A DNA stretch of 32,000 nt. Source: Geotalea uraniireducens Rf4 (lineage in GTDB: Bacteria; Desulfobacterota; Desulfuromonadia; Geobacterales; Geobacteraceae). Under the pieces are notes generated by a model. That model made no database searches and was not told where the DNA came from. It worked only from the letters and a program-made list of their open reading frames with translations. Shown one piece after another: positions 1,937 through 32,000 of the stretch. Where the stretch lies: positions 540,001-572,000 of the forward strand of contig NC_009483.1 of NCBI RefSeq assembly GCF_000016745.1. Reading direction: 5' to 3'. Position 1 is the first letter of the stretch; the number at the start of each line of letters is the position of its first letter. The position numbers and the translations under genes were made by a program.

Positions 1937-2029
1937 CGACCGTTGGCAGGGCTCGGCTTGAAGCGCACAGCCCAGTGTCGTGCGCTGTTTTTACGCGTAT
2001 CAATTCTGATCAGCAGATGGAGAAGCAAC

Positions 2030-4593: not shown

Positions 4594-4704
4594 AAGGTTA
4601 ATAATGGTTTTTTAAATACCAACCTCGCGTTCTGCAACTTCTTCTGTTGCCTTTGCGCCTATTTTTGCTATCTTTACGTGAATCTCAATAACAGGAGGGC
4701 GTTG

Positions 4705-13413: not shown

Positions 13414-13434
13414 GTTCCCAGTTCCCAGTTCCTA
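13414..13434. repeat. Heptamer tandem repeat GTTCCCA x3, overlapping the stop codon of the activase gene
   Basis: GTTCCCA GTTCCCA GTTCCTA. It shares the CCCAG core with the array at 13266-13286. Imperfect inverted segments TACACTGTAACA (13285-13296) and TGTTACATGGTA (about 13399-13410) lie just inside the two arrays. Confidence 0.75.
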
Positions 13435-14217
13435 TCCCAAAAAAGCGCAGCCGATGGCGCCGTTATGCTGCGGATGCTCCGGTACGGTCACTGTCATCCC
13501 GGTTTCCATTTCCAGAAGCCGGACCAGTGCCTTATTCAAAGCCACACCGCCGGTCAGCACCAGCTTTTCGCCCGGGAAGCGCTTAAGCATCGGCATCACG
13601 CGCTTGACCAGGGTCTGGTTGACTCCGGCGCAGAGCCGTCCGACGGGATAGCCGCGCAGGATCTGGCCGATCAGCTCCGACTCGCCGAAAATGCCGCAGG
13701 TGGCATCGAGGGTTACCGGCTCCTCCCAGTGGGAGGATAGCTCGTCAAGGCTCACCTCAAGAATCGACGCCATGTTTTCCAGGTAGCGGCCGCTCGATGC
13801 GGCGCATTTGTCGTTCATGACGAAGTCGGCGAGCCTGCCCCCCTTGACCAGCGCCACCTTGGTGTCCTGTCCCCCCATGTCGAGCAGGGTGAAATTTTTC
13901 AGGCCGGTCTGCATGATGGCGCCGGACACGTGGGCCCTGATCTCGGAAATTACCAGGGCGCCGCGCATGGAGATGGTGTTGCGTCCGTAACCGGTTACTA
14001 TTACGGATGCCGCAGAGAGTTCCTCTTCAGAGAACAGCCCGCTTCCCGCCAGGTCGAGCAGCAGGTCATCACCATCGACCCTGCCGAAACGCTTGTAAAA
14101 GGTGACGGTATCGTAATCGGCCAGCCTGCTTATGGCCCCATTGGCGAGGAGGGCGAACTTCGCCTTCCTGCTCCCCAGGTCGATGCCTATTTTCATGGTC
14201 ATATCATTCACCATCAA
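13432..14217 (-). CDS. Acyl-CoA dehydratase activase-type ATPase (BcrAD/BadFG/HgdC family)
   Basis: The motifs are MKIGIDLGS, GYGR, DMGGQDTKV, NDKCAASSGRYLE and LTGGVALN, in the family order. The start is ambiguous: the ATG at 14217 overlaps the upstream gene by 14 nt, and ATGs at 14202 or 14196 are alternatives. Confidence 0.88.
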   Translation of the reverse strand: MMVNDMTMKIGIDLGSRKAKFALLANGAISRLADYDTVTFYKRFGRVDGDDLLLDLAGSGLFSEEELSAASVIVTGYGRNTISMRGALVISEIRAHVSGAIMQTGLKNFTLLDMGGQDTKVALVKGGRLADFVMNDKCAASSGRYLENMASILEVSLDELSSHWEEPVTLDATCGIFGESELIGQILRGYPVGRLCAGVNQTLVKRVMPMLKRFPGEKLVLTGGVALNKALVRLLEMETGMTVTVPEHPQHNGAIGCAFLG

Positions 14218-15205
14218 CCAGCAACCGCTTTTCCCCGAGCATTTCCACGAATCCCTCGATCCTGATCTTCGTTCTCGCGTCCAGACGGGATGGCTTGTCC
14301 CCTTCCAGGGTCAGGATGGGGAGGTCGAGCTTGCGGCGGATGACCATGTCCTCTATCTGTCTGAAGCAGAACGACTGGACATAGTGAATGACCCCGTCGA
14401 TGTTCCTCCTGTCGATTTCCATGCTGATGTCTGCGAGGCGATGAAAGATGTCGTAAGGGTAGGTGTAGCTGCGGTACTGCTCCACCAGGTCGAGCGTTTC
14501 GTACGGCATGGCAAACTGGCGCTGGGTTTCGTTGAAGACCACCCGGGCGCCGAGCGATTCCAGGAATGGGTAGAGCCCGGAAAAAATGGGGGGAACGCCG
14601 AGGTAGGCGATTCTTACCCGGTCGCTGAACGGTTTGCGGGCGACTGCCTGCTCCAGGAAGGCGTCGATTTCCGCCTCGAAGCGGTCGGGATCGCCGTTCA
14701 TGTCCGATGCCGAGACTTGGAAATAGTGGTTCTCTTCCCCTGATACCCTGTTCTCCTGCCAGGTGAGCCTGTCGATCTCCCTGATCTTGCGGCGGATGCG
14801 GTCCAGTCGCTCTTTTGCAGCATTCACTTCCTGCCATCCAACCCCGAAATGGCCCATCAATTTCTCGATCTCTGCCTTAAGGCTTTGCGGGTCGCGGTCA
14901 AGGGGGTAGGCAAAAGGGATGACCGTTATCCCCCCCATGGATAGGACTTCCATGAGCGCCTTGGTGTAGCTGCAATCCCCTTCGGTAACGGCGATCATCT
15001 CTCTTATGCCGCTTTCCCTCACGGCGGCGTAAATCCCCTTGATCCAGCCGCAGACGTTGCGGGGGAAACCGTCCACTTCGGCATCTTCAATGAATTGCTG
15101 GCTTTTGTCGCTGGTAATGAAGATGTTGTTCAGGTCTGCCGGGGTCTTCCCCGCCGCGATCAGAATCTCGATGGGTATGGTTGTGGTGAAGCCGATTCGG
15201 GACAA
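14204..15205 (-). CDS. 2-hydroxyacyl-CoA dehydratase / benzoyl-CoA reductase family protein (single subunit, 3 Cys)
   Basis: The ORF is 333 aa with a TTG start at 15205 (GGAG 9 nt upstream). The N-terminus SRIGFTTTIPIEILIAAGKTPADLNN is typical of this family. The only cysteines are in NVCGW, GDCSY and SFCFRQ. It is adjacent to an activase gene. Confidence 0.8.
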   Translation of the reverse strand: MSRIGFTTTIPIEILIAAGKTPADLNNIFITSDKSQQFIEDAEVDGFPRNVCGWIKGIYAAVRESGIREMIAVTEGDCSYTKALMEVLSMGGITVIPFAYPLDRDPQSLKAEIEKLMGHFGVGWQEVNAAKERLDRIRRKIREIDRLTWQENRVSGEENHYFQVSASDMNGDPDRFEAEIDAFLEQAVARKPFSDRVRIAYLGVPPIFSGLYPFLESLGARVVFNETQRQFAMPYETLDLVEQYRSYTYPYDIFHRLADISMEIDRRNIDGVIHYVQSFCFRQIEDMVIRRKLDLPILTLEGDKPSRLDARTKIRIEGFVEMLGEKRLLVDGE

Positions 15206-19719: not shown

Positions 19720-20115
19720 ATGATGGTTGTGGGCTTCAATCATAACGTTGTGTATAAAGGGGAAATGTTCCATATCCAGACCGAGGATAGCGGAATTGCG
19801 AACCCACATATCATAACTCTCCTCTATCGCGGCGGCACCATAATCTCCTCAAAAAAGACCAGCTATGCCGATATAATCAAGATTGAAAATCTTGAGCAGG
19901 TGGTGGAAGATCTCATGAAGGAGCAGCATAAGGATATGCTGCGCCGTCTGAAGGCTGCCGAATTCGATGGCCGCCTTTTCGGCTCGCAGTCGCAAGCTCC
20001 CGCCGCTCCAGCCACTCCCGTCACTCCTCCACAAAATGCATCAGCAACAACCCAAAAGCCGACACAAAGTCTTGACGAAATAATTCTTGAGTACCTCATT
20101 ACCGATGACAATTGA
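19720..20115 (+). CDS. Hypothetical protein (131 aa), structured N-terminal domain plus a low-complexity P/A/T/Q-rich tail
   Basis: The ORF starts with ATGATG. I do not recognise the family (HIQTEDSG...LLYRGG segment). Coding-like periodicity is present. Confidence 0.6.
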   Translation: MMVVGFNHNVVYKGEMFHIQTEDSGIANPHIITLLYRGGTIISSKKTSYADIIKIENLEQVVEDLMKEQHKDMLRRLKAAEFDGRLFGSQSQAPAAPATPVTPPQNASATTQKPTQSLDEIILEYLITDDN

Positions 20116-20148: not shown

Positions 20149-20979
20149 GTGAAAGAGCATATCGCAAATCTGGAAGAAAAAGCCAGGCAGCTTCGCATCT
20201 CTATTGTCAGGGCGCTGCATAGCTCCCAATCTGGTCACACCGGCGGTTCTCTGTCGGCTATCGACATGGTGACCGCCCTCTATTTTTACAAGATGCGCCA
20301 TAATCCTGCAGAGCCGTCATGGGAAGGCCGGGACCGCTTTGTCCTCAGCAAGGGACATGCGGCGCCTGCGCTCTATGCCGCCCTGTCCGAAGCCGGATAT
20401 TTCCCCAAGGAAGACATGATGATGTTGCGCCGCCTCGGCAGCCATCTGCAAGGTCATCCTGACAGTAAAGCTACGCCTGGTGTCGACGTCTGCACCGGCT
20501 CCCTGGGACAGGGCCTTTCCATGGCCAACGGGATGGCCCTCGGTCTCAAGTTGGATGGCAGGGATAACAGGGTATATGCCCTGCTGGGCGACGGCGAGTT
20601 GCAGGAAGGGCAGGTCTGGGAAGCGGCAATGGCGGCGGCCCATTATAAACTGGATAACCTCTGTGCCATGGTGGATGCCAATAACCTGCAAATTGACGGT
20701 GACGTTGCGAAGGTTATGAACGTCGCCCCCATAACCGACAAGTTCAGCGCTTTCGGCTGGCATGTACTCGACATAGACGGCCATGATCTTGAGGCGATCG
20801 TCAACGCCCTGGATGCGGCGGAGACGGTCAAGGGGAAACCGACGGTTATCGTTGCCAGAACGGTAAAAGGGAAGGGTGTCTCCTTCTTTGAGAACAAGGC
20901 ATCGTACCACGGCGTTCCACCCAGTGATGAGGAGTTGCCGCGGGCACTGGAGTGCCTGGGAGAGCAATGCAATCTGTAG
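20149..20979 (+). CDS. Transketolase, N-terminal (thiamine-diphosphate-binding) subunit of a split transketolase
   Basis: The ORF is 276 aa with a GTG start and an AAAGGAAAGG SD. The motifs are SGHTGGSLS, GSLGQGLS and GDGELQEG. Confidence 0.92.
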   Translation: MKEHIANLEEKARQLRISIVRALHSSQSGHTGGSLSAIDMVTALYFYKMRHNPAEPSWEGRDRFVLSKGHAAPALYAALSEAGYFPKEDMMMLRRLGSHLQGHPDSKATPGVDVCTGSLGQGLSMANGMALGLKLDGRDNRVYALLGDGELQEGQVWEAAMAAAHYKLDNLCAMVDANNLQIDGDVAKVMNVAPITDKFSAFGWHVLDIDGHDLEAIVNALDAAETVKGKPTVIVARTVKGKGVSFFENKASYHGVPPSDEELPRALECLGEQCNL

Positions 20980-21078
20980 AGGTGCATGGCATGCGCCCCT
21001 GTGCCAAGCGGATATGGCGGTATAGCAAGCAAGGGCGCACACCGTGCGCCCCTTCATAACAGAAAGGGATTTAAATAT

Positions 21079-22017
21079 ATGAGCACAATGATTGCTACCA
21101 GAGACGCCTATGGTGAAACCCTTGCGGAACTGGGCGCGGAGAATAAGAACGTTGTTGCCCTGGACGCGGACCTTTCGGGTTCGACGAAAACCGGCGTTTT
21201 TGCAAAAAAATTCCCTGAGCGGTTTTTCAATATGGGCATTGCCGAGGCAAATATGGTCGGCACTGCTGCCGGGCTCGCCGCTGTCGGGAAGATACCGTTT
21301 CTTTCCACATTCGCTATTTTTGCCGCCGGCCGGGCTTGGGAGCAGATCCGTCAGTCAGCCGCATATCCGAAGGCCAATGTCAAGATAGTAGCGACCCACG
21401 GTGGCGTAACGGTCGGCGAAGACGGTGGTTCCCACCAGTCGGTGGAAGATATAGCCATCATGCGTGCGATTCCCAACATTACGGTCATTGTTCCGGCCGA
21501 CGGCGTTGAAACCAAGGGCGCCATCAGGGCCGCCGCCGCCATGAAAGGGCCGGTCTATGTCAGGCTCGGACGCAACAAGGTGCCGACCATCTTCCCTGAA
21601 GACCACCGTTTTGAAATCGGCAAAGGGGCTGAGTTGGTTGCCGGTTCCCATATGACCTTCGTTACCACCGGCCTTATGACTGCCCAGGCAATCGCCGCCG
21701 CAGAGAGTTTGAAGAAGGATGGCATTTCTGCGCGGGTGGTCCATATCGGCACCATCAAGCCGCTTGACCAGGAAATAATCCTCAAGGCAGCCCGGGAAAC
21801 CGGCGCCATTGTCACTGCAGAAGAGCACTCCGTCATCGGCGGGCTTGGCGGCGCCGTTGCCGAGCTTCTTGGCGAAAACTGTCCGACCCCCATGAAACGG
21901 ATCGGCATCAACGACCGCTTCGGCACCTCCGGCAAGGCGGAAGAACTGCTCAAATATTTCGGCCTGACCCCGGACTGTCTGGTTGACGCAGCAAAGGAAA
22001 TCCTTTCGAGGAAATAG
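21079..22017 (+). CDS. Transketolase, C-terminal (pyrimidine-binding + C-terminal domain) subunit
   Basis: ORF 20986-22017 was trimmed to the ATG at 21079 (MSTMIATRDAYGETL). The motifs are FFNMGIAEANMVG and THGGVTVGEDGGSHQ. A hairpin GGGCGCAC-ACC-GTGCGCCC (21033-21051) lies between the two halves. Confidence 0.92.
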   Translation: MSTMIATRDAYGETLAELGAENKNVVALDADLSGSTKTGVFAKKFPERFFNMGIAEANMVGTAAGLAAVGKIPFLSTFAIFAAGRAWEQIRQSAAYPKANVKIVATHGGVTVGEDGGSHQSVEDIAIMRAIPNITVIVPADGVETKGAIRAAAAMKGPVYVRLGRNKVPTIFPEDHRFEIGKGAELVAGSHMTFVTTGLMTAQAIAAAESLKKDGISARVVHIGTIKPLDQEIILKAARETGAIVTAEEHSVIGGLGGAVAELLGENCPTPMKRIGINDRFGTSGKAEELLKYFGLTPDCLVDAAKEILSRK

Positions 22018-22596
22018 ATGGTATTCAACCCGCTCAGGTCTGCTGCCGGATTTACCTACATCGCCGCATTGGTGCTGGTGATAGTAATGGGCATTATGCT
22101 TGGCGTTGTCGGCCAGACCTGGACCCAGATCATGAAACGCGAAAGGGAGCAGGAGCTGATCTTTCGCGGCACCCAGATCGTCCAGGCGATCAGGCGGTGG
22201 AATAAACCCAAAACCCCCCAACAACAGGCGGTCATGCCGCTTTTCGAGTTGGAGCATCTGTTGAAGGACCCGCGGTCCTTTGCCAATCTTCGGCATCTGC
22301 GCCGGCTGTACAAGGACCCCCTGACCGACAAGGACTGGCGGGTGATCAAGGATCCCCATCGCGGCATTATCGGCGTTGCCAGTTCCAGTGAAGAAGAGCC
22401 TTTGCGGCAAAGCTTCCAGACTATGACCCCGCTAAGTGCATCTGACAAGTATCTGGAGCAGATGTTCAAATCGTTCGAGGGAAAGAAGAAATACAGCGAA
22501 TGGGAGTTCGTCTACCGAGGGGAAGGCGTTGCACCGGGAACCACAACCACAACGGTAACTACACCGAGAACTACAACTGGGACGCCAGGTGGATAA
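22018..22596 (+). CDS. Type II secretion / type IV pilus pseudopilin-like protein (prepilin-type N-terminus, no Glu+5, Thr-rich tail)
   Basis: The ATG directly abuts the transketolase stop (TAGATG). The N-terminus is MVFNPLRSAAG|FTYIAALVLVIVMG. GspG-like REQELIFRGTQIVQAIRRW and YKDPLTDKDW segments are present. The C-terminus is PGTTTTTVTTPRTTTGTPGG. Confidence 0.75.
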   Translation: MVFNPLRSAAGFTYIAALVLVIVMGIMLGVVGQTWTQIMKREREQELIFRGTQIVQAIRRWNKPKTPQQQAVMPLFELEHLLKDPRSFANLRHLRRLYKDPLTDKDWRVIKDPHRGIIGVASSSEEEPLRQSFQTMTPLSASDKYLEQMFKSFEGKKKYSEWEFVYRGEGVAPGTTTTTVTTPRTTTGTPGG

Positions 22597-22643: not shown

Positions 22644-24119
22644 TTGATATTTAAGAGTCTTACATCAAGGGTCATCGTAATATCCATTTGTCTGCTTGTA
22701 TTCGGTATCAGCGCCTTTGCTTTTGTAACGTTGCGCAGAGAGCAGATGCAGTTGATCAATGCCGCAAGGGAAAACAGCGAGCTTTTGCTTAATACCATCG
22801 AGAGAAGTACCTATAATTCCATGCGTATCGGCAATTCGGAGGATGTGCAGATTATTTTGGAGATGGTAGGCCAGAACCAGAAGTTGCTCGGTGTACGCAT
22901 ATTTCATCCTCACGGCATAGTCCTCAAGTCGTCCCAACCCAGCGAAGTCGGCAAGCCCGTGGATAATCGTGATTATCAGCTCTTCATCAATAATAAAAAA
23001 GAAGGGGTTTTTACCCTGGAGGGGCACGGTGAAGTTCTCGGGATGCTTAAACCCATCTATAACGATGAGCAGTGCCATGTTTGTCATGGGCACAAAAGCC
23101 GCATAATCGGCTTATTGAACGTCAATTACTCGCTCGTCGAAACGAGAAAGCGAATAATGGATGCTACAAAATTATTTGTTTTCTCTACCATAGCCATCAT
23201 TGCCTTCCTTTCCCTTGCCATTTCCCTTGTTATGCTTAAATTCGTCAAAAAACCTTTGCACCTTATGGCAGAAAACATGGCACGGGTCGAAAAAGGCGAT
23301 TTGTCGGTACGGATGAAACCTGAAGGCAAGGATGAGATCGGTCGACTGATTACCAGCTTCGACTCCATGGTCGACCGGCTCGATACGGCGAAGCAGGAAC
23401 TGGAGCGTTATCACTTTCAGCAGATGGAGCGGGCGGATCGTCTTGCCTCTGTCGGCGAAATGGCGGCGGGAATCGCCCACGAGATCAAAAACCCCCTCAC
23501 CGGCATAGCCTCGGCGATAACGATCATAAAGGATGATTTTTCTCCATCGGACCCTCGAACCGAGATTGTCAACGAAGTTCTGGAGCAGGTCAGTCGTCTC
23601 GATAAGACCGTGAACGATTTGCTCTTTTTTGGCAAGCCCTCACAGCCGGAACCAACATATATCGATATTAATGCGACATTAAAAAAGACACTCATGTTTG
23701 CATCCCGGCATCGGGGCAGTAAGGATATCGAGAAAAAACTTGAGCTTCAGGACGATTTGCCGCCGGTATATGTCGACCCCAAGCAAATTCAGCAGGTTTT
23801 TCTGAATCTGTTTTTGAATGCGGTACAGGCGATGTATCAGGGGGGAGTGCTTACAATAAAAAGCTCTTTGCTGCAAAAAGATTGTACGTGGGTAGAGGTC
23901 AGCGTAGCCGATACCGGTCAAGGAATACCCCCGCAGATTCTGGAGAAGATATTCACTCCGTTCTTTACCACAAAAGCTCAAGGTACGGGCCTGGGTCTGG
24001 CTATCTGCCATAAACTCGTAACTCAGCACGGCGGAACATTGTCTGTTGCCAGCGAGGACGGCAAGGGGACTATATTTACCGTTGCCTTGCCGGCTTTCGA
24101 CCATGGTTTGCAGGTCTGA
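22644..24119 (+). CDS. Sensor histidine kinase with a periplasmic CXXCH (heme c) sensor domain, HAMP, HisKA and HATPase domains
   Basis: The start is a TTG at 22644 (GGAG 6 nt upstream). There are two TM segments flanking a domain of about 150 aa that contains CHVCH (23073-23087). The H-box is AAGIAHEIKNPL. The N, G1 and G2 boxes are LNLFLNAVQA, DTGQGI and GTGLGL. Confidence 0.9.
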   Translation: MIFKSLTSRVIVISICLLVFGISAFAFVTLRREQMQLINAARENSELLLNTIERSTYNSMRIGNSEDVQIILEMVGQNQKLLGVRIFHPHGIVLKSSQPSEVGKPVDNRDYQLFINNKKEGVFTLEGHGEVLGMLKPIYNDEQCHVCHGHKSRIIGLLNVNYSLVETRKRIMDATKLFVFSTIAIIAFLSLAISLVMLKFVKKPLHLMAENMARVEKGDLSVRMKPEGKDEIGRLITSFDSMVDRLDTAKQELERYHFQQMERADRLASVGEMAAGIAHEIKNPLTGIASAITIIKDDFSPSDPRTEIVNEVLEQVSRLDKTVNDLLFFGKPSQPEPTYIDINATLKKTLMFASRHRGSKDIEKKLELQDDLPPVYVDPKQIQQVFLNLFLNAVQAMYQGGVLTIKSSLLQKDCTWVEVSVADTGQGIPPQILEKIFTPFFTTKAQGTGLGLAICHKLVTQHGGTLSVASEDGKGTIFTVALPAFDHGLQV

Positions 24120-24226
24120 AACGGGTGTGCAAGCGTAGCAGGCCTCTAAACGTCACTGTGTGAGTAAATTAACGTTATTTTGAAAGCTGAAGCAAATATA
24201 AACATCTGAAGTCAAAAGGAGTTCCC

Positions 24227-25597
24227 TTGAGAAAGACAAAAATACTAGTCGTGGATGATGAACATTTAATCCGCTGGTCTCTTGAGCAGAACTTGAAAAA
24301 GCAGGGCTACGAAGTTTTCACGGCAGGCAATGGTGAAGATGCGCTGCGCTTGGTGCGGGAAGAGCAACCCGATCTGGTTCTGCTGGACATCCAGCTGCCG
24401 GGAATAGGCGGCCTGGAGGTGCTTGAGAAGGTCAAAGAATTCGATGAGGATATCGTCGTTATTATGCTGACGGCCCATGGCGGATTGGAAACCGCGGTAA
24501 ATACCATGCGCATGGGGGCCTACGATTATATAAACAAGCCGTTTAATCTGGACGAGTTGTCGATAGTAATTAAAAAAGCGCTTGAGACGTCCGACCTGCG
24601 GCGAGAAGTGGTGCAGCTCCGCAGTGAGCATAAAAAATCCGGTCCTCCGCAGATTATCGGCACGAGCAAGCATATGAAAAATGTTCTGGATATGATGGGA
24701 AAGGTTGCCAAGAGCGAGGCTTCGACCGTCCTGATTCAGGGGGAATCCGGCACGGGCAAGGAGCTTGTCGCCAAATGGATTCATTATCAGTCCAATCGCT
24801 CGGAAAAGCCGTTCGTGGCTATAAACTGTGCGGCGGTACCGGCAACACTGCTTGAGAGTGAATTGTTCGGACATGAAAAAGGGGCTTTTACCGACGCAAA
24901 AACTGCGAAGAAAGGTTTGTTCGAACTTGCCGACGGCGGGACCGTATTTCTCGATGAAATCGGCGATATGGAGATGGGGATGCAGGCCAAACTCCTGAGA
25001 TTTCTTGAAGACAGGACATTCAGGAGAATCGGCGGGGCAAAAGTGATATCCGTGGATGTCAGGATCATATCGGCCACCAATAAAGAACTGATGAAGGCAA
25101 TTGAGGAAAAATCATTCAGAAACGATCTGTATTACCGGCTCCAGGTCATTCCGATATTTCTTCCGGCTTTACGGGAGCGCAAGGAAGACATTATCCAACT
25201 GGCTAATCATTTCATTGAAACTTTCGGCAGGGAGTTCAACAAGCCCATCAATAATATTTCAAGCATGGCGGAAAAAATGCTGTTGGAATACAGCTGGCCC
25301 GGCAACATCCGCGAACTTAAAAACGTCATCGAACGCGCGATAATTCTGGGAAGTGAAGATACCCTCCTTATTGAAAATCTGCCGCTGGAAATTATTGCCA
25401 AGACATCCTCGTCGAACGTCCCGCTGGCAACGTTTAAACTCCCGCCTGAAGGTGTCGATATTGAAGAGGTTGAAAAGGAACTCATCCGGCAGTCTTTGGA
25501 AATCACCGATTGGAATCAGTCCAAGGCCGCAAAAAAACTGAACCTCGGCATCGATGCATTTCGCTATCGAATGAAAAAATTCGGCTTTTTGAAATAA
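24227..25597 (+). CDS. Sigma-54-dependent response regulator (NtrC family: REC + AAA+ + Fis-type HTH)
   Basis: The start is a TTG at 24227 with an AAAGGAG SD. REC is ILVVDDE...DLVLLDIQLPG. Walker A is GESGTGKE. The sigma-54 contact loop is GAFTDA (24881-24898). ESELFGHEKGAF is present, and the C-terminal HTH is NQSKAAKKLNLGIDAFRYRMKKFG. Confidence 0.93.
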   Translation: MRKTKILVVDDEHLIRWSLEQNLKKQGYEVFTAGNGEDALRLVREEQPDLVLLDIQLPGIGGLEVLEKVKEFDEDIVVIMLTAHGGLETAVNTMRMGAYDYINKPFNLDELSIVIKKALETSDLRREVVQLRSEHKKSGPPQIIGTSKHMKNVLDMMGKVAKSEASTVLIQGESGTGKELVAKWIHYQSNRSEKPFVAINCAAVPATLLESELFGHEKGAFTDAKTAKKGLFELADGGTVFLDEIGDMEMGMQAKLLRFLEDRTFRRIGGAKVISVDVRIISATNKELMKAIEEKSFRNDLYYRLQVIPIFLPALRERKEDIIQLANHFIETFGREFNKPINNISSMAEKMLLEYSWPGNIRELKNVIERAIILGSEDTLLIENLPLEIIAKTSSSNVPLATFKLPPEGVDIEEVEKELIRQSLEITDWNQSKAAKKLNLGIDAFRYRMKKFGFLK

Positions 25598-25641
25598 TCT
25601 GTAGATTTGCCGGTTGGCGCAATCGAGATACAATCGCATAA

Positions 25642-25696
25642 AAGCGAAATGACATCCTGTGGTGCAGCGCATTTGGGCGATCAAGTCATTTCGCTT
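25642..25696. promoter_or_regulatory. 12-bp perfect inverted repeat AAGCGAAATGAC ... GTCATTTCGCTT (31-nt spacer), followed by TTTCC; either the terminator of the regulator gene or an enhancer-binding (UAS) site
   Basis: Read from the sequence. Its centre is about 180 bp upstream of the -12 element at 25851. An AT-rich tract (about 25767-25800), compatible with DNA bending, lies between the two. Confidence 0.3.
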
Positions 25697-25837
25697 TTCC
25701 CATCCACATTTTGGCAGGATTACAGCCACAAGCCACAAGCCGTATCGGGTGCTTTCAGTCGTTACGAATTAAATATGCATTATATATCGCCTATTGTATA
25801 GGCGTTCATTGGAAATGCCAGTCCCTTGGCCGATGTC

Positions 25838-25853
25838 GGGCACTGAAGTTGCA
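25838..25853 (+). promoter_or_regulatory. Sigma-54 (-24/-12) promoter
   Basis: gGGCAC-TGAAG-TTGCA compared with the consensus TGGCAC-N5-TTGCW. GG (25839-25840) and GC (25851-25852) have the canonical 12-nt register. It lies 84 nt upstream of the NHL-protein ATG and just downstream of an NtrC-type activator gene. Confidence 0.7.
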
Positions 25854-25936
25854 TATATTTGATAAACAAAAACACTGCCGCAGGGCAGGCTTGCTATTAA
25901 ATTAAGAATATCTCCAATAAATACGGAGGCTTTCAG

Positions 25937-28750
25937 ATGATTCACTCTACTCGAAATCTATTGGCAATACTTGTCGTCTCACTGTTTGTTGCGGTTATTT
26001 CGCTGCCAGGAATAACCTCAGCCGCAGTGGCTCCTAAAATCTCTACCCTGACACCGGTGAAGCGCGATATGGTGGCTCCCGTCAGGATAGCTATGGATTC
26101 GTCGGGCAATTATTATGTGACCGACCCGCGTAGCAGGGGGGTATTGAAGTTTAATGCCTATGGGCGGCTGGTGAAGACTATACCGACTGCTGGCGTCCCT
26201 TTAGGTGTGGCTGTTGCAGCCAACGGCAACGTCATTGTGACCCAGGGTACCTATGTGTCTATCCTCGATCCTGACGGCGTAGAACTTGCCAAGCTGGGGA
26301 GTGGTGTCGGTCAGTTTGCTAAGGCGAACGGTGTCACGATAGATGGGAATGGTTATATATATGTTACCGATGGTGGTCTTCATCTGGTGCGGGTCTTTAA
26401 TGCCTCGGGCGCATCAGTCACGCAGTTTGGCGGCAAAGGTGTGGCTACGCAAAGCGTCCCGCTCAATGGCCTCTTTAATGATCCGACCGCGATAGCATAT
26501 GAGAAGGCGCATAATCAAATTGCCGTTGCCGATACCTTGAACGGTAGGATTCAGTTCTTCGATGCTGCCACTTATGCGTGGGTCAAGACGATAGGCAAGA
26601 TAGGTGATGCTCCCCTGTCCTTTGTTTCGCCCCAGGGGATAGTATTTGAATACGCCAACGCTACCACACTGATGAGGATGTATGTGGTGGATACCTGGAA
26701 AAATACTATGCAGGTGATTGACACCGAAGCCTCTGCGGCCGGTAATTTCTTGTCGCTTATAGGCTGTGGAACGGTAAGTTTCCAGTATGGTATGTGCGGC
26801 GGGGTGGCGGATGGGCAGTTGCAGTTGCCGTCGGATGTGGCGTTTGATGCGGTAAACGGCAGGCTTCTGGTGGTTAATGGAGCCGGCAATATCCAGATAC
26901 TCGGCGTCGATGGCGGTTCGAGTCCATTTGACAATATCCCCCCCGTGTTGACGCTTAATACGGTGCCCAGCAACACTAATCAGGCTAACCTGGCGATAAG
27001 CGGGACTGCTGATGTGGGCGTTGAGCTTAAGGTGACGGTAAGCACCTCTGCTGTCGCCGGTCCGATAAATCATGCGTCAACCCCTTGGGATACGACAATA
27101 ACCGGCCTTAACTTCGGCAGCAATCTTATCACCGTTACCGCCACGGACGCGGCGGGCAATGTGGCAACGAAGCAGGTGAACGTTATCTATTCGTTGCCTG
27201 CTCCTGCGCTCAGCATAACGACAGCTTCCAATATCATGACCAACACGTCTGGTCAGACTATTAACGGTACAGTGGATGCCGGCGCAACGGTGACGGTCGT
27301 CAATGCAGCTACGGGTGCGAGCGGTGCGGCCGTCGTCAACGGGACAACGTGGAGTTATGAAGCCACGCAGCTGGTGGAAGGCGCAAACAATATTACGGTG
27401 ACAGCGACCCAGCCGTCGAGTGCAGCTGCCACGGCAACAATAACCGTGGTGCGCGATACCGTCCAGCCGGTTCTTACCGTGTCTGCGCTTGCCAACGGCA
27501 GCTCCAGCAGCGTGTTGACGCAAAATATCGCCGGTACCGTCGCTGACCTGCATCCGGGCACGGTTACCGTAACGGTCAATACCGTACCGACGACCGTTAA
27601 TGGTAGCACATTCAGCGTTCCGGCGAATTTACAGGTAGGTCCGAACACGGTGACTGTGCAGGCTGTTGACTTGGCCGGCAACGCATCTTTCACCAATACC
27701 AGAACCATATACTACGACCCGGCGACACCGGTTGTGAGTATAACCACACCCCCGTCGCCGGCGGACAACTCATATGTCAAGACTAGCACAGTGGGCATGA
27801 GCGGGACCGTTACACCTGCCGCTTCAACCATAACCGTTAACGGCGTTTCCGTAGTCGTAGACGCGTCCGGCTACTGGCCGGCAGGCGGCGGCACTACGCC
27901 GGTCACACTCACTAGCGGGATCAATACGCTGGAGGTAGTCGCCACATCGGGCACCAAGTCTTCCAGCATGAAACGCTCTGTTATCTATGATCCATCGTTG
28001 CCGGTACTCGCCATTACTTCCCCGGCTCAGGATATTGCCACTAATCAGCCGAATATGAATATCGCCGGCACGGTGTCCGATGTCGGCAGTGCAGTTACCC
28101 TGGCTGCGACCGTGAACGGCGCAGCTGTCTCACCGGCCCCGGTTGTAACCAACGGTGCCTACAATTTCAACGCGACGTTCGGCCCGGTAGAAGGGCCCTA
28201 TAGTGTGGTGGTGACGGCAACCGATGCCGCCGACAATGTGACGACGTTGCCGCCACGCTCCATCACCTATGATATAACTCCGCCTGCGTTGACGCTTGAT
28301 CCGGTATATGCCGGTTATCCGAAGACCATCAGCGGCACGGTGGAATTGCAGGCAGGCGTTACCGTTGCGGATGGCGCTGCGTCATTCCCGGTTACCATTG
28401 TCAACGGCAGTCCTAACGCTACCTGGAGCGCGGACCTGTCGGCCGGGAATTATAACCCGTCGACCATCAAGATTACCGCGACCGACCCAGCTGGTAATCC
28501 TTCCGTTAGAACGGGACTGACATACACTCCCCCTATCGGTGACATAAATGGCGACGGTCCTGTAAATATCCTTGATGCGCGATATGCGCTTCAGTGCGTG
28601 GTCGGTCTCGCTACACCGACGGCAGCGGAAATACTGCGCGGCGATATCGGACCGCTGTTGAACGGGAAGGCGAATCCGGACGGCAAGATAGACCTCGTCG
28701 ACGCAATGCTTATACTGCGTAAGGCGTTGGGTGATCCCGTAAGTTGGTAA
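25937..28750 (+). CDS. Secreted NHL-repeat beta-propeller protein with tandem Ig-like domains and a C-terminal dockerin-type module
   Basis: The ORF is 937 aa with a signal peptide (LLAILVVSLFVAVISLPGITSAA). There are six NHL-like blades: YYVTDPRSRGVLKFN, VIVTQGTYVSILD, IYVTDGGLHLVRVFN, IAVADTLNGRIQFFD, MYVVDTWKNTMQVID and LLVVNGAGNIQILG. At least 6 Ig-like repeats end in xTVTATDxAGN-type strands. The dockerin-like duplicated Ca-binding loops DINGDGPVNILD and NPDGKIDLVDAMLIL are at 28538-28747. Confidence 0.88.
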   Translation: MIHSTRNLLAILVVSLFVAVISLPGITSAAVAPKISTLTPVKRDMVAPVRIAMDSSGNYYVTDPRSRGVLKFNAYGRLVKTIPTAGVPLGVAVAANGNVIVTQGTYVSILDPDGVELAKLGSGVGQFAKANGVTIDGNGYIYVTDGGLHLVRVFNASGASVTQFGGKGVATQSVPLNGLFNDPTAIAYEKAHNQIAVADTLNGRIQFFDAATYAWVKTIGKIGDAPLSFVSPQGIVFEYANATTLMRMYVVDTWKNTMQVIDTEASAAGNFLSLIGCGTVSFQYGMCGGVADGQLQLPSDVAFDAVNGRLLVVNGAGNIQILGVDGGSSPFDNIPPVLTLNTVPSNTNQANLAISGTADVGVELKVTVSTSAVAGPINHASTPWDTTITGLNFGSNLITVTATDAAGNVATKQVNVIYSLPAPALSITTASNIMTNTSGQTINGTVDAGATVTVVNAATGASGAAVVNGTTWSYEATQLVEGANNITVTATQPSSAAATATITVVRDTVQPVLTVSALANGSSSSVLTQNIAGTVADLHPGTVTVTVNTVPTTVNGSTFSVPANLQVGPNTVTVQAVDLAGNASFTNTRTIYYDPATPVVSITTPPSPADNSYVKTSTVGMSGTVTPAASTITVNGVSVVVDASGYWPAGGGTTPVTLTSGINTLEVVATSGTKSSSMKRSVIYDPSLPVLAITSPAQDIATNQPNMNIAGTVSDVGSAVTLAATVNGAAVSPAPVVTNGAYNFNATFGPVEGPYSVVVTATDAADNVTTLPPRSITYDITPPALTLDPVYAGYPKTISGTVELQAGVTVADGAASFPVTIVNGSPNATWSADLSAGNYNPSTIKITATDPAGNPSVRTGLTYTPPIGDINGDGPVNILDARYALQCVVGLATPTAAEILRGDIGPLLNGKANPDGKIDLVDAMLILRKALGDPVSW

Positions 28751-28768
28751 TGTTGCCTGAGCGACTGT

Positions 28769-28811
28769 TGTATTGATGATGTATTGATATCTGCTATACC
28801 TGTCTATTGAC
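28769..28811 (+). promoter_or_regulatory. Phased direct repeats TGTATTGAT (x2, 11-bp period) plus a degenerate third copy TGTCTATTGAC; possible regulator binding site or internal promoter before the cytochrome gene
   Basis: The repeats are at 28769-28777 and 28780-28788, with a third copy at 28801-28811. A TATATAAAT -10-like tract is at 28817-28825. Confidence 0.25.
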
Positions 28812-28843
28812 TAAGCTATATAAATGTTTTCAGGAGCGTAAAC

Positions 28844-31800
28844 ATGAAACGACCAATTACAAATGCTCTGGCAACACTGATGATGGTCTTTATAGTGGCA
28901 ACCACAGCTTATGCCAAGGAACTATCTAGTCCTCACACATTCGGCATACAGAGCGATGGCTCAACGGTTGATACATGCTCTGTCTGTCATGCGAGTGCCT
29001 TGCCGACTGGTGCTGCTGCGAACAACGTCTGTCTGGTTTGTCATAAGGCAGGCAGTGCATATTCCTTGACCAAGCAGTTCTTCAAGGGGGATATGGCTAA
29101 CCCTTTCGGGACTACGGTCGAGGATGACTCCAATAGCAACTATTCTCATAGTTCGCACGAGTGGTCGGCTACCGACAATAACCCTGCGGCCGGTGCGCTG
29201 CCGCCGACAAACAGCGCCATGAAAACGGTCACTGCGTATAACGGGCTCTTAAGCTGTAATCGTTGCCATTCCGTTCATCAGCTCGACTCAATACCCGCAG
29301 CGCAGAAGCCTCTCCTCAGGGTGCAGAATAGCAACAATGAAATGTGTTTGGATTGTCATCGATTGAGGAACACACAATCGCACCTGACCGGTACACATCC
29401 CGTAAATATTAACTATACTACCGTGGCAAAGAACAATCCTGCGAAATTCTACCCGCAGCCGGTGAACAGCAATCCCAATAACCTGACTTCGGCGATGAAT
29501 CTCATAAATGGCAATATACTCTGTACAACATGCCATGGTATCCATTACACCGACTCGAACTCACACACTTTTGACAACCGCACTACGGCGCTTACTGGTC
29601 GCCTCGCTCCCTCCAAGGGCTACCTGCTGAGAACGGATTATCGCAATTATTCCTCAAGCTTGAATAGTCCGAATATCTGTACCAACTGTCATGCGAATAA
29701 ATTCGAACATAATGGCGGCGAACAGAGAGTGGTCTGTACCGACTGCCACAGCGGCCACGTGGATTACGATCCAAACGCGCTGACCAGTCAGGACCGGGTA
29801 CCCAATATCTATATGATCAAGCGCTACATGAACTGGTCGTCACCAACCGGCTGGAAGGATAACAGGAAGCTGGCTACCCCTAAGCAGACCTTTTATCAGG
29901 ATGCAGGTGCGACAACTAAGCTCTTTAAGCGGGCCGATGGCAAGGGTGTCTGTCAGGGATGCCATGAAGTGCCCGTCGCTGGTCTGACCTCTCCAAATGG
30001 CAATATCTACCCCGATGAGCATGGCACGTCGAATCTCGTCGATGCCCCGGCCTCTTCCTGTATATCTTGCCACAACCACGACACACCTGCACCGGAGGGT
30101 TCATTTGCCGCGAGCTGTACCAGCTGTCATGGTCAGCCGCCGACGGCCACTTCGGCAGCGGCCGGTTACACCGGCAACGAGGCCGTGTCTGCGCACCTGC
30201 GCCATACCGGTTACTCATACGGATGTAAGGAATGTCATTATTCCGGTGCCCCTTCCGACCTGCACAGGAATGGCAGTTTCAAGGACGTATTTACGACCTA
30301 CACCTCAGGTATGATCGCGCGTAAATTTGGCGCTAATCCTCAGTATAATCCTGATAACACATGTTCCACAGTCTATTGCCACAGCAATGGTGCAGTACCA
30401 CCCGTATATCAGACGCCCCCCAACTGGTTCGGCGGCAATATCACCACCTGCGATGCCTGCCACGAAGCATCACCGACAACCAATGCCCATGCGAAGCATA
30501 TTGGCGCACCGAATAATTATAGCTGTGAGAACTGCCATGCGGCCACTGCAACCGGTTCGACGGTCATCAAAGACAAAACGAAGCACGCTAACGGCGGTAA
30601 GGAAGTACAATTTTCCTCAACAGCGCTTCCATTCGTAAACACGGGAAGTTTCGCTTCAGCAACTTGTTCGGCTGTCTACTGCCACAGTGACGGGGCCGAA
30701 ACCTATGCGACGCCTGTCTGGACAAACAGCAGCACTGGCGCGTGCGGCACCTGTCATGCCACAACAACGAGGGCTACCGCTGCTCACCAGCCGCACCTTT
30801 CGACATCTGTGGCGTACGGTCCGAAACTCAACAATTTGCCGGTGGCTGCTGCCTGTAATAGCTGCCATGGACCCGATTACACGGTCAATCACATTAACGG
30901 CTCCGTGCAGCTTGTTGCTGATACGTCATGTACTGCTTCTTGTCACAAAAATGGCCTCGGAACGTCAACTTGGACTTCCGGTATACGCCCAACCTGCGAA
31001 AGTTGCCATGCCGGCTTGCTTTCCGTGATTGATGGCAAAACTGCCCCGGATAAGGGCTTGTTCCAGACCTTAGGTCACGGCAAGAACTCCAGCAGTACCA
31101 GCGTGGTCATGAATTATGTCTGTACATCGTGTCATGATTCCAACGCTGCACATATCAATCCGCCGGTGCGTGACGGCAGGTTGCAGTCGAATCTTACCTC
31201 GTCTTTCAACGCACAATGTAACTACTGTCACAATGATTCGTTAAAGGTTACGACGTTATCCAAGCTGAATTTGCCATCTCACGTTCTGGATAAAAATGCT
31301 TCTCCTACAGCAAGCAGTTGTAGTCTCTGTCATGATCTCCATGGTTCATCCAATAGGTCTATGATCAGAGATATCATCAACGGTCAGTCGGTCAGCTTCA
31401 AAAACTCGACTTGTGTCACGACTTCTCTGAATGCCAATGGCGTCTACGCCGGTTTGTGTCAAGTATGTCATACGCTTACCAGGTTCTATAAAAACTCTGT
31501 TGCAGAAGGCAGTCACTATACAACGGGTTGTCTGAGTTGCCACAAGCATACCGATAATACTAATGGCCAACCTGCGGATGCTGCTTTCTATGCCTTCAAG
31601 CCGACTGGCAACTGCAACGATTGTCATGGCTATCCGCCGGTTCAGAGCCTTGACGGCATTGCTGTCCAGGGTAATTACTCCGGTGCCCGGCTCAATGATT
31701 ACATCGGTGGTGGCGGTGCCCATAGTGTTGCCGGTCATATACCGAAAACCGTCAAGCCAGCGGATGGCTGGGCTAACTGTGCCAAGTGTCACTACGGTGC

Positions 31801-32000
31801 AAATGATGCTATTCACATGACACGTGATTACACGAAACCAAGCAACATAAGGGTTGCTGTTGATCCGCAGTACAAGTTCAACGCGGCACTGCAGATCAGG
31901 TACAGCAGCAACCAGGTTGATCCGCCGCTTGTGAATTCAACTGGCACCTGTTCTAATGTCAGCTGTCACTTCCAGCCGACACCACGCTGGAGTACGATAA
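28844..32000 (+). CDS. Giant secreted multiheme c-type cytochrome (partial; continues beyond the window), containing the Geobacter-type CxxxxCH...CXXCH repeat unit
   Basis: It is not in the supplied ORF track because no stop occurs before the window end. I translated the frame by hand from the ATG at 28844 (AGGAG SD at 28832-28836) to 32000 and found no stop in 1052 codons. The signal peptide is MKRPITNALATLMMVFIVATTAYA. There are 23 CXXCH motifs (the first, CSVCH, at 28976-28990), 3 CX4CH (CSTVYCH at 30362-30382, CSAVYCH, CSNVSCH) and 1 CX3CH (CTASCH). Confidence 0.9.
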   Translation, partial: MKRPITNALATLMMVFIVATTAYAKELSSPHTFGIQSDGSTVDTCSVCHASALPTGAAANNVCLVCHKAGSAYSLTKQFFKGDMANPFGTTVEDDSNSNYSHSSHEWSATDNNPAAGALPPTNSAMKTVTAYNGLLSCNRCHSVHQLDSIPAAQKPLLRVQNSNNEMCLDCHRLRNTQSHLTGTHPVNINYTTVAKNNPAKFYPQPVNSNPNNLTSAMNLINGNILCTTCHGIHYTDSNSHTFDNRTTALTGRLAPSKGYLLRTDYRNYSSSLNSPNICTNCHANKFEHNGGEQRVVCTDCHSGHVDYDPNALTSQDRVPNIYMIKRYMNWSSPTGWKDNRKLATPKQTFYQDAGATTKLFKRADGKGVCQGCHEVPVAGLTSPNGNIYPDEHGTSNLVDAPASSCISCHNHDTPAPEGSFAASCTSCHGQPPTATSAAAGYTGNEAVSAHLRHTGYSYGCKECHYSGAPSDLHRNGSFKDVFTTYTSGMIARKFGANPQYNPDNTCSTVYCHSNGAVPPVYQTPPNWFGGNITTCDACHEASPTTNAHAKHIGAPNNYSCENCHAATATGSTVIKDKTKHANGGKEVQFSSTALPFVNTGSFASATCSAVYCHSDGAETYATPVWTNSSTGACGTCHATTTRATAAHQPHLSTSVAYGPKLNNLPVAAACNSCHGPDYTVNHINGSVQLVADTSCTASCHKNGLGTSTWTSGIRPTCESCHAGLLSVIDGKTAPDKGLFQTLGHGKNSSSTSVVMNYVCTSCHDSNAAHINPPVRDGRLQSNLTSSFNAQCNYCHNDSLKVTTLSKLNLPSHVLDKNASPTASSCSLCHDLHGSSNRSMIRDIINGQSVSFKNSTCVTTSLNANGVYAGLCQVCHTLTRFYKNSVAEGSHYTTGCLSCHKHTDNTNGQPADAAFYAFKPTGNCNDCHGYPPVQSLDGIAVQGNYSGARLNDYIGGGGAHSVAGHIPKTVKPADGWANCAKCHYGANDAIHMTRDYTKPSNIRVAVDPQYKFNAALQIRYSSNQVDPPLVNSTGTCSNVSCHFQPTPRWSTI

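Follow-up and report, generated by a model that had tools for sequence, protein, structure and literature searches.

A predicted heme-kinase and sigma-54 activator pair directly upstream of an OmcO/OmcP-type cytochrome operon in Geotalea uraniireducens Rf4

We analyzed a 32,000-nucleotide stretch of the Geotalea uraniireducens Rf4 genome (the window), toward the end of which five genes follow one another on the forward strand, encoding a pseudopilin-like membrane protein, a sensor histidine kinase, an NtrC-family response regulator, a secreted NHL protein and a secreted multiheme cytochrome. A sequence-only reading had pointed to five elements in this region, namely a kinase with a periplasmic heme site, a sigma-54 activator, an inverted repeat with an AT-rich tract, a sigma-54 promoter and a two-gene unit for the NHL protein and the cytochrome. 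All five were found where that reading had placed them and its gene identifications hold. Based on dN/dS, each of the five genes is under purifying selection.

The kinase gene (22644-24119, forward strand) starts with TTG and encodes 491 residues with HAMP, HisKA and HATPase_c domains recognized by Pfam. The protein is arranged as a first transmembrane segment, a putative PDC/sCache-like periplasmic domain bearing a c-type heme site, a second transmembrane segment, HAMP, HisKA (H279) and the ATPase domain. Its one CXXCH motif (CHVCH, residues 144-148) is assigned to the periplasm because it is located between two hydrophobic segments (approximately residues 10-30 and 177-200). The motif is kept in 120 of 120 homologs, which were the best matches of the similarity search and all at least 72% identical, with its two inner residues variable. 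The proposed periplasmic location of the kinase's CXXCH is borne out by position, and the motif by its conservation. Values of dN/dS for the kinase were 0.02-0.04. Pfam family PF21563 matched the sensor domain with 23.9 bits, below its cut-off of 27, and a comparison with PDB profiles returned the c-heme PAS sensors 3B42, 3B47 and 5B82 among the top weak matches (E 0.14-0.5). An AlphaFold model of the sensor domain, built with eight close sequences, reached a pLDDT of 53, which does not allow the fold to be assigned firmly; its top Foldseek matches were all extracytoplasmic PAS/Cache sensors. Two of the proteins behind these profiles, GSU0582 and GSU0935 (PDB 3B47 and 3B42), resemble the kinase in carrying a single CXXCH toward the C-terminus of a periplasmic domain, ca. 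130-150 residues long, that lies between two membrane helices. They are, however, chemoreceptors and not histidine kinases, and their similarity in sequence stays under the family thresholds. GSU2916, the positional counterpart of the kinase in G. sulfurreducens, has been counted among the heme-bearing two-component proteins of that organism.

Periplasmic redox would be a plausible signal for such a kinase. Alternatively, its heme could sense a ligand such as O2, NO, CO or sulfide instead of redox poise, in which case a gas or oxidant signal would switch the operon, a reading to which we assign a distinctly lower but still appreciable probability. A ligand signal has precedent in c-heme PAS-type sensors, because the related sensor DcrA has been described as sensing both redox potential and oxygen variation, and conserved histidine and methionine residues of the sensor domain (FHPHG; M60 and M134, numbered on the full-length protein) could act as displaceable sixth ligands. 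The sequence does not discriminate between the two signals. An extracellular electron-transfer cargo fits redox control, as known for BccR. BccR (GSU0598) is a REC-AAA+-HTH sigma-54 regulator which turns on the cytochrome operon cbcBA when the acceptor's redox potential drops, and the nearby gene GSU0599 codes for a heme-bearing signal protein, comparable to the heme kinase described here. In contrast to the operon in the window, cbcBA encodes an inner-membrane bc-type quinol oxidoreductase and is divergently transcribed, and BccR belongs to a different ortholog group.

Upstream of the kinase, a gene for a 192-residue pseudopilin-like membrane protein (22018-22596, forward strand) abuts the stop codon of the gene for a transketolase C-subunit. 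The protein yielded no Pfam match and showed a weak GspG-like N-terminus (E 0.004). Its gene precedes the kinase in all syntenic loci, Geomonas included, with a dN/dS of about 0.12, and the protein may be an accessory of the sensor.

The activator gene (24227-25597, forward strand) likewise starts with TTG and encodes a sigma-54 enhancer-binding response regulator of 456 residues, in which Pfam and NCBIfam recognize REC, Sigma54_activat, AAA lid and HTH_8 domains. The receiver domain (Response_reg, E 2.2e-32) contains the phospho-acceptor D54 within LLDIQLP, the AAA+ domain (Sigma54_activat, E 2.6e-72) has the Walker A sequence GESGTGKE and a DEIG motif, and the C-terminus forms a Fis-type helix-turn-helix (HTH_8, E 2.7e-12). 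Apart from its sigma-54 contact loop, the protein has the full set of parts of an NtrC-type activator, the type that had been proposed. This loop reads GAFTDA where the canonical sequence is GAFTGA; GAFTDA recurs in L004 (of our set of loci), the only ortholog whose whole sequence was read. Between genera, the activator is 78-98% identical with a nearly invariant HTH region, and dN/dS was 0.01-0.02.

The spacer between the activator and NHL genes contains a perfect inverted repeat (25640-25698, forward strand) with 14-nt arms at 25640-25653 and 25685-25698 separated by 31 nt. As RNA, the repeat forms a hairpin of -23.2 kcal/mol (z -2.5) ca. 40 nt past the activator stop codon. Its sequence is conserved in the closest relatives only. 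Other loci have hairpins of different sequence at the equivalent place, and several have terminators 3' of the activator gene. Most likely, the repeat is a terminator or stabilizing hairpin of the kinase-activator transcript. While the repeat as such is real, the enhancer role previously given to it is not well supported, given the strong hairpin near the activator stop codon and the lack of a shared motif. As an enhancer, the repeat would offer the activator two inverted copies of GTCATTTCGC, which we regard as unlikely. The window holds two exact copies of this 10-mer and L002 one; L033 has a copy at the same offset that differs at one position, and G. pickeringii an exact one. The background is one exact match in 1.35 Mb. 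Even allowing two mismatches, however, it is absent from most other clades having an identical HTH. Moreover, some 150-200 nt separate the repeat from the -24 element downstream, and it resembles the terminators seen at that position elsewhere.

Closer to the promoter, an AT-rich tract runs into a second palindrome (25763-25804 in total), both lying ca. 35-75 nt ahead of the -24 element. The tract itself (25763-25792) is 73% AT, and the palindrome (25788-25804) reads CGCCTAT-N3-ATAGGCG. Both are conserved only in L002 and represent a possible bending or activator site. Searches of the spacers for further signals gave negative results. The spacer in the window had no match to the IHF consensus within one mismatch. 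Across loci, no palindrome with exact half-sites of 4-6 nt and spacers of 0-13 nt was shared by more than two loci, the 8-mer search with one mismatch allowed picked up nothing but A-runs and sequence from the activator gene's coding end, and Gibbs sampling at widths of 10-18, with and without this coding end, gave an information content barely above that of shuffled sequences. No conserved activator binding site was thus found by palindrome, 8-mer or Gibbs searches of the orthologous spacers.

The predicted sigma-54 promoter (25838-25853, forward strand) has the sequence GGGCACTGAAGTTGCA, with the GG at 25839-25840 and the GC at 25851-25852. It deviates from TGGCAC-N5-TTGCW at one position and is the sole such match in the window. 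As 1.4 matches are expected per 32 kb, the match alone is not above chance, and its significance results from its conservation across related loci. In the alignment of the spacers, whose mean identity is 36%, GGCA and TTGC are invariant and form the sole conserved block. A -24/-12 element was found 73-89 nt upstream of the NHL start codon in all 21 loci in which the NHL-cytochrome genes follow the orthologous activator, in agreement with the near-consensus promoter originally noted, and in none of approximately 28 loci in which they do not adjoin it. In four loci (L004, L005, L011 and L092), a gene for a 4-heme cytochrome is located between the activator and NHL genes and has its own sigma-54 element beside the activator. 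Transcription is predicted to start at about position 25864, resulting in a 5' untranslated region of ca. 73 nt. A conserved hairpin sequestering the Shine-Dalgarno sequence of this region was weak (-2.4 kcal/mol) and showed no compensatory changes, and no riboswitch or other Rfam family reached its gathering score in the window.

Downstream of the promoter, the NHL gene (25937-28750, forward strand) encodes a secreted protein of 937 residues consisting of a signal peptide, a 6-bladed NHL beta-propeller, five to about six Ig-like domains (Glucodextran_B and Big_13) and a C-terminal dockerin at ca. residues 865-937 (domains according to Pfam). Its homologs over the full length, 155 in all, come from Geobacteraceae and Desulfuromonadales, and dN/dS was 0.14-0.18. 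The dockerin scored below threshold in Pfam (Dockerin_1, 19.8 against a cut-off of 22.9). It nevertheless contains a duplicated EF-hand-like calcium-binding loop (DINGDGPVNILD and NPDGKIDLVD), and a family profile of the region matched PDB dockerins with an E-value of 7.6e-5. A model of the domain reached a pLDDT of 87.7, and its top 33 Foldseek matches were all dockerins with target TM scores of up to 0.83. Profile and fold thus confirm the dockerin named by the sequence-only reading. No cohesin was evident in the Pfam lists of the neighboring genes, and we found no discussion of a dockerin on the NHL partner of the cytochrome in the literature searched.

The cytochrome gene (28844-32000, forward strand) reaches the end of the window, which falls inside its last sense codon; another 5 nt would complete the stop codon. 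On a 100% identical contig, the gene is seen in full and encodes a secreted c-type cytochrome of the OmcA/OmcO family with 1053 residues. It carries 23 CXXCH and four CX3-4CH motifs, giving exactly 27 heme sites where at least 27 had been claimed, as well as a GSu_C4xC__C2xCH domain. Identity to G. sulfurreducens OmcA is 42% over 100% of the OmcA length. The same 23+4 motif count was obtained for the cytochromes of G. pickeringii and G. grbiciae and for a 1048-residue cytochrome encoded upstream of omcA in L029, which is likely GSU2887. The spacer between the NHL and cytochrome genes shows no significant structure (z -0.38), while a strong predicted terminator, a GC-rich hairpin followed by a T-run, lies 3' of the cytochrome gene, past the window end; the cytochrome gene is complete and followed by a terminator in L001 and L032. 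These observations are in agreement with a two-gene unit without an internal terminator.

The pairing of a propeller protein with a giant cytochrome had been considered uncharacterized. This does not hold, as GSU2916-GSU2912 and Gmet_0556-0558, both of them on record, are positional orthologs of the locus. Since a counterpart has been described in both G. sulfurreducens and G. metallireducens, the locus is not new in kind. In G. sulfurreducens, GSU2916-GSU2915-GSU2914-omcP(GSU2913)-omcO(GSU2912) comprises, like the window, a heme kinase, a sigma-54 activator, a predicted RpoN promoter, an NHL protein and a 27-heme cytochrome. The RpoN promoter before GSU2914-2913-2912 was predicted in 2009. 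Our assignment of orthology to GSU2916-2912 is based on a gene table from the literature together with the loci of G. pickeringii and G. grbiciae. In G. metallireducens, the counterparts of the structural genes are Gmet_0556 (NHL) and Gmet_0558 (27 hemes), with Gmet_0557 (4 hemes) between them, the activator corresponds to Gmet_0555, and both loci occupy the same chromosomal place as the window genes, after split transketolase genes and the pseudopilin-like gene. Gmet_0556, Gmet_0557 and Gmet_0558 have been reported as necessary for Fe(III) oxide reduction or for interspecies electron transfer to G. sulfurreducens, with the 4-heme gene essential in G. metallireducens. In contrast to both of these operons, the operon in the window is without a 4-heme OmcP-like gene. 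Compared with the proteins of Geobacter sensu stricto, the NHL protein is 33-50% and the cytochrome 38-42% identical.

A second, paralogous arrangement is found in the GSU2885-omcA(GSU2884)-omcH-omcG unit, where an NHL/Ig protein of ca. 890 residues directly precedes a 27-heme cytochrome of ca. 1040 residues in one transcription unit. This is a known cGAMP-riboswitch operon with tandem GEMM-I riboswitches but without a sigma-54 element or an adjacent two-component system, whereas no riboswitch is present in the window. Secreted NHL propellers encoded beside outer-surface cytochromes are also known from GSU2505 (by omcS), DFE_0451/DFE_0463 of D. ferrophilus and UetH/UetI of Tenderiales, and have been proposed to stabilize cytochromes or help assemble them. 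The combination of an Ig stalk and a dockerin has, in contrast to the window protein, not been reported for these propellers.

Conserved linkage in related genomes had been set beforehand as a test of the proposed module, and it was found across Geotalea, Geobacter, Geomobilimonas and many metagenome-assembled genomes (MAGs). In G. pickeringii and G. grbiciae, which were approached from the cytochrome as an unbiased check, tkt is followed in turn by the pseudopilin-like gene, the kinase and activator genes, the promoter, and the NHL, 4-heme and 27-heme genes. However, ca. 28 loci, and Geomonas sp. RF6 as well, keep the kinase-activator pair in the same tkt neighborhood without the operon or a nearby sigma-54 element. 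It follows that the pair must act on other targets or on further ones, and the one-to-one circuit originally envisaged is not upheld. Adjacency may even exist without direct control, with the promoter being fired by one of the many other Geobacter enhancer-binding proteins, the pair serving a different conserved regulon and the cassette merely inserted downstream. In addition to the loci without the operon, this scenario would account for the failure to find a shared upstream motif in the spacers and for the slow evolution of the regulators, which is 5-10 times slower than that of the cargo as judged by dN/dS. Further, a second NHL copy in MAG H2geo (L010) has a sigma-54 element near a different activator which is only 41% identical. 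We nonetheless judge it improbable, because promoter and adjacency occur strictly together (21/21 against 0/ca. 28) and a second sigma-54 element directly adjoins the activator in the loci that carry an additional cytochrome gene. NtrC-family activator genes usually adjoin their targets. We infer that the local activator, and not another one, drives the NHL promoter.

Our preferred reading, which we hold to be fairly probable, is that a two-component system acts through sigma-54 as a switch for the outer-surface electron-transfer operon lying directly downstream of it. The membrane kinase would carry one covalent c-type heme in its periplasmic PAS/Cache-like domain, and a change at this heme, either in redox state or through binding of a small ligand, would alter autophosphorylation at H279. 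The phosphoryl group would then be passed to D54 of the activator, which would assemble and spend ATP on opening the sigma-54 holoenzyme poised at the -24/-12 element. The resulting transcript would run through both structural genes and end at the hairpin that lies shortly beyond the window. Both proteins would be exported via Sec signal peptides, with the cytochrome presumably serving as a long heme wire. The propeller protein, as a conserved partner of the cytochrome, would most likely hold it, position it or help assemble it at the cell surface, and the dockerin may anchor the stalk of the propeller protein to some partner. Counted against this model were the GAFTDA loop, the missing conserved binding site, the kinase-activator pairs in loci without the operon, the existence of paralogous NHL-cytochrome pairs under other controls (such as cGAMP riboswitches), the low confidence of the sensor-domain model and the absence from the window of the 4-heme partner gene.

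A more far-reaching version, which we put forward as speculation and consider quite improbable, would treat the propeller/Ig/dockerin protein as a cellulosome-style anchor, with its dockerin docking onto a cohesin-like surface protein while the propeller holds the 27-heme wire. The deeply conserved heme-sensing kinase-activator pair would in this version be a fixed socket for fast-evolving sigma-54 cytochrome cassettes that insert or disappear, whether or not they include a 4-heme OmcP-like unit. If true, it would mean that surface cytochrome assemblies in Geobacteraceae are modular and exchangeable.

In conclusion, we confirmed a dockerin on the partner protein of the cytochrome and assembled comparative data for a locus whose existence, predicted promoter and structural-gene phenotypes are already recorded for model strains, so that the value of the present analysis is incremental. 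The control of the many outer-surface cytochromes is among the less understood sides of extracellular electron transfer in Geobacter. For the OmcO/OmcP-type operon, the strictly co-occurring promoter and the invariant heme site of the kinase, together with the presence of the same cargo under cGAMP riboswitches in a paralogous operon, make up the comparative case and provide a testable hypothesis for how this operon may be regulated.

All five elements that the sequence-only reading had joined into one module (heme kinase, activator, promoter, NHL/dockerin protein and giant cytochrome) were present, and the proposed regulatory logic is plausible and conserved. The genes all lie on the + strand. 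Downstream of split transketolase genes (20149-22017) and a pseudopilin-like ORF of 192 aa (22018-22596), a histidine kinase (22644-24119) and an NtrC-type sigma-54 activator (24227-25597) both start with TTG. A 339 nt spacer separates the activator from the gene for a 937-aa NHL/Ig/dockerin protein (NHL protein, 25937-28750), which is followed after 93 nt by the multiheme cytochrome gene (28844 to the window end). In an identical public contig (L001, 100%) and a near-identical strain (L032), the cytochrome is complete at 1053 aa and a classic intrinsic terminator, ATGGCCGGGGGCATCCCCCGGCCATTTTCTTT, lies downstream of its gene, and the operon therefore comprises exactly two genes. All genes are under purifying selection, with dN/dS values of 0.01-0.04 for the regulators and 0.07-0.18 for the cargo (NHL protein and cytochrome). 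Further, linkage is conserved among relatives, covering Geotalea, Geobacter, Geomobilimonas and metagenome loci. The last ~35 nt ahead of the cytochrome start (28810-28843, ATATAAATGTTTTCAGGAGCGTAAAC) are nearly invariant even where the remaining NHL-cytochrome spacer differs; it may act as a signal for translation, or else contain a weak -10-like element internal to the operon.

The sigma-54 promoter (GGGCACTGAAGTTGCA, 25838-25853) deviates from the consensus at one position. As 1.4 such one-mismatch matches are expected by chance per 32 kb, the single-sequence match is not above chance and the case for the promoter rests on comparative data. Related loci were fetched by three routes: from genomes with the NHL protein, from metagenomes with the sensor domain of the kinase, and with the cytochrome together with the kinase. 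A -24/-12 element was found 73-89 nt 5' of the NHL start codon in every locus with NHL-cytochrome genes behind an orthologous activator, namely 7 metagenome and 14 genome loci, the latter including Geotalea, Geobacter sp. AOG1, OR-1, DSM 9736, Geomobilimonas luticola, G. pickeringii and G. grbiciae. Every aligned sequence retains GGCA and TTGC, with a mean column identity of 36% for the alignment overall. No such element was detected in ~28 loci where the kinase-activator pair has no NHL-cytochrome genes next to it; in Geomonas sp. RF6, for example, the pair is followed by a terminator and then a divergent DUF362 gene. In loci L004, L005, L011 and L092, which have a 4-heme cytochrome gene inserted between the activator and NHL genes, a separate sigma-54 element for this gene lies ~90 nt past the activator stop. 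The promoter first proposed from a single sequence is thus borne out by conserved position and sequence across syntenic loci.

The spacer had also been read as carrying an enhancer. The AT-rich tract and a perfect 14-nt inverted repeat (arms 25640-25653 and 25685-25698) are real, but an enhancer role for the repeat is not upheld. It starts ~40 nt past the activator stop, its RNA fold is a hairpin of -23 kcal/mol, and unrelated hairpins, some of them textbook terminators, occupy the corresponding place in other loci; the repeat is therefore taken to mark where the kinase-activator transcript ends. Searches for an activator site by palindromes, k-mers and Gibbs sampling yielded no motif common to different clades, despite a nearly invariant HTH. 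The remaining candidate lead is the repeat arm GTCATTTCGC: G. pickeringii has an exact copy and locus L033 a one-mismatch copy at the same offset, against a background of one exact match in 1.35 Mb. In the NHL 5' UTR (25906-25931), ATCTCC-AATAAATA-CGGAGG is kept in most orthologous leaders, and its CUCC is able to pair with the Shine-Dalgarno GGAG. This hairpin is weak (-2.4 kcal/mol); changes are C-to-U only, keeping G-U pairs, and no compensatory pairs were found among these leaders.

The kinase comprises HAMP, HisKA (H279) and HATPase domains, with a core nearest to ZraS and AtoS. Its sole CXXCH (aa 144-148) lies between both membrane segments. Cys-x-x-Cys-His is kept in all of the best 120 homologs (72-95% identical) while the inner residues vary (HV, NL, HI, YT, YP and others), a signature of selection for heme attachment. 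The sensor-fold assignment, drawn from profiles and a predicted model, is weaker: the Pfam Geobacter heme-sensor model scores just under threshold, the c-heme PAS sensors 3B42, 3B47 and 5B82 are within the top six family-profile matches at E 0.1-0.5 only, and a poor AlphaFold model (pLDDT 53) matches extracytoplasmic PAS/Cache sensor domains only. The activator has D54, Walker A and B motifs, a GAFTDA loop and an HTH_8 domain. The 192-aa ORF, which adjoins the transketolase C-subunit gene at its stop codon, encodes a pseudopilin-like N-terminus (AAGFTYIAALVLVIV; weak GspG match, E 0.004). It lies immediately 5' of the kinase gene in all related loci, Geomonas genomes without the cytochrome operon among them, and its product may belong to the sensor system as a third component.

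On the cargo side, members of the NHL protein family in Geobacteraceae and Desulfuromonadales are conserved at full length, with about 850-950 aa. Its proposed dockerin holds up: the C-terminal 70 residues contain two canonical Ca-loop/helix repeats, the family profile matches solved dockerins (E 7.6e-5), and the top 33 structural matches of a confident model (pLDDT 87.7) are dockerins, with RMSD down to 1.1-1.5 Å. Shorter paralogs of ~420 aa, mainly propeller, lie directly 5' of cytochromes of the same family in loci L013-L019, making the propeller the constant partner. The cytochrome fragment in the window contains 27 motifs (23 CXXCH and 4 CX3-4CH), in line with the at least 27 heme sites claimed, while the other five frames hold 0-3 CXXCH each. 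These 27 motifs are retained in the homologs checked (G. pickeringii, G. grbiciae and G. sulfurreducens), and G. sulfurreducens OmcA is 42% identical over the whole length. In many genomes the cassette includes the 4-heme gene (~280 aa, OmcP-like by position; L004 8766-9692, L006 12758-13600, L112 7114-7956, L113 7129-7971 and L029, the G. sulfurreducens omcA locus, 377-1216), either between the NHL and 27-heme genes or before the NHL gene with its own sigma-54 promoter; neither the window nor its closest relatives have it.

The pairing had been considered uncharacterised; it is instead the ortholog of a described Geobacter locus. G. grbiciae, by its name presumably a close relative, shows exactly the Gmet_0556-0558 gene order behind an orthologous kinase-activator pair. 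Gmet_0557 and Gmet_0558 carry 4 and 27 hemes, and their loss is detrimental both to Fe(III) oxide reduction and to the transfer of electrons to G. sulfurreducens; Gmet_0556 (NHL protein) is cited as important in iron reduction. OmcO (GSU2912) is 67% identical to Gmet_0558, OmcP is GSU2913, and GSU2916 is listed among the two-component proteins, with a single heme motif. An RpoN promoter, TTGGCACCATAATTGCT, was already predicted 5' of the operon GSU2914 (NHL repeat protein), GSU2913, GSU2912 (Leang et al. 2009, supplementary table). The paralogous operon GSU2885-omcA-omcH-omcG is documented under tandem cGAMP riboswitches, which we confirmed in L029, whereas a riboswitch search of the window found none. 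With BccR there is already a case of redox potential acting through sigma-54 on a cytochrome operon, and NHL propellers beside outer cytochromes have been noted in D. ferrophilus and Tenderiales.

Other genes of the window, namely a molybdopterin oxidoreductase (1083 aa, 4678-7929) with a 4Fe-4S protein (129-887), an MCP (859 aa, 1943-4522) and minus-strand 2-hydroxyacyl-CoA dehydratase-type genes (13432-15205), lie upstream and are unrelated to the candidate electron-transfer block. The ORF at 19720-20115, between metH and the transketolase genes, encodes 131 aa and strongly matches the RomY N-terminal domain (NCBIfam NF053858, E 3.5e-40); together, murI, Germane, metH, this ORF and tkt form a conserved block.

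Most likely, the kinase would sense via its heme and give rise to phospho-activator, which would fire the sigma-54 promoter to yield NHL-cytochrome mRNA; both proteins would then be exported and assembled at the surface, the heme wire being held by the propeller/Ig/dockerin protein. Least secure in this chain are the assignment of this activator to the promoter, given that the searches yielded no binding site, the type of signal perceived by the kinase, and the putative jobs of propeller and dockerin. Between L032 and the window, kinase and activator proteins are 100% identical (dS ~0.04-0.05) and the NHL and cytochrome proteins differ by ~2.5-3% (97% identical; dS 0.10-0.16), which hints at recombination or faster turnover of surface-exposed cargo. 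Many genomes keep the kinase-activator pair but not the operon, so other targets of the pair are probable; the cytochrome cassette has the look of an accessory unit that genomes acquire, lose and remodel, with the 4-heme gene present in some versions and absent from others.
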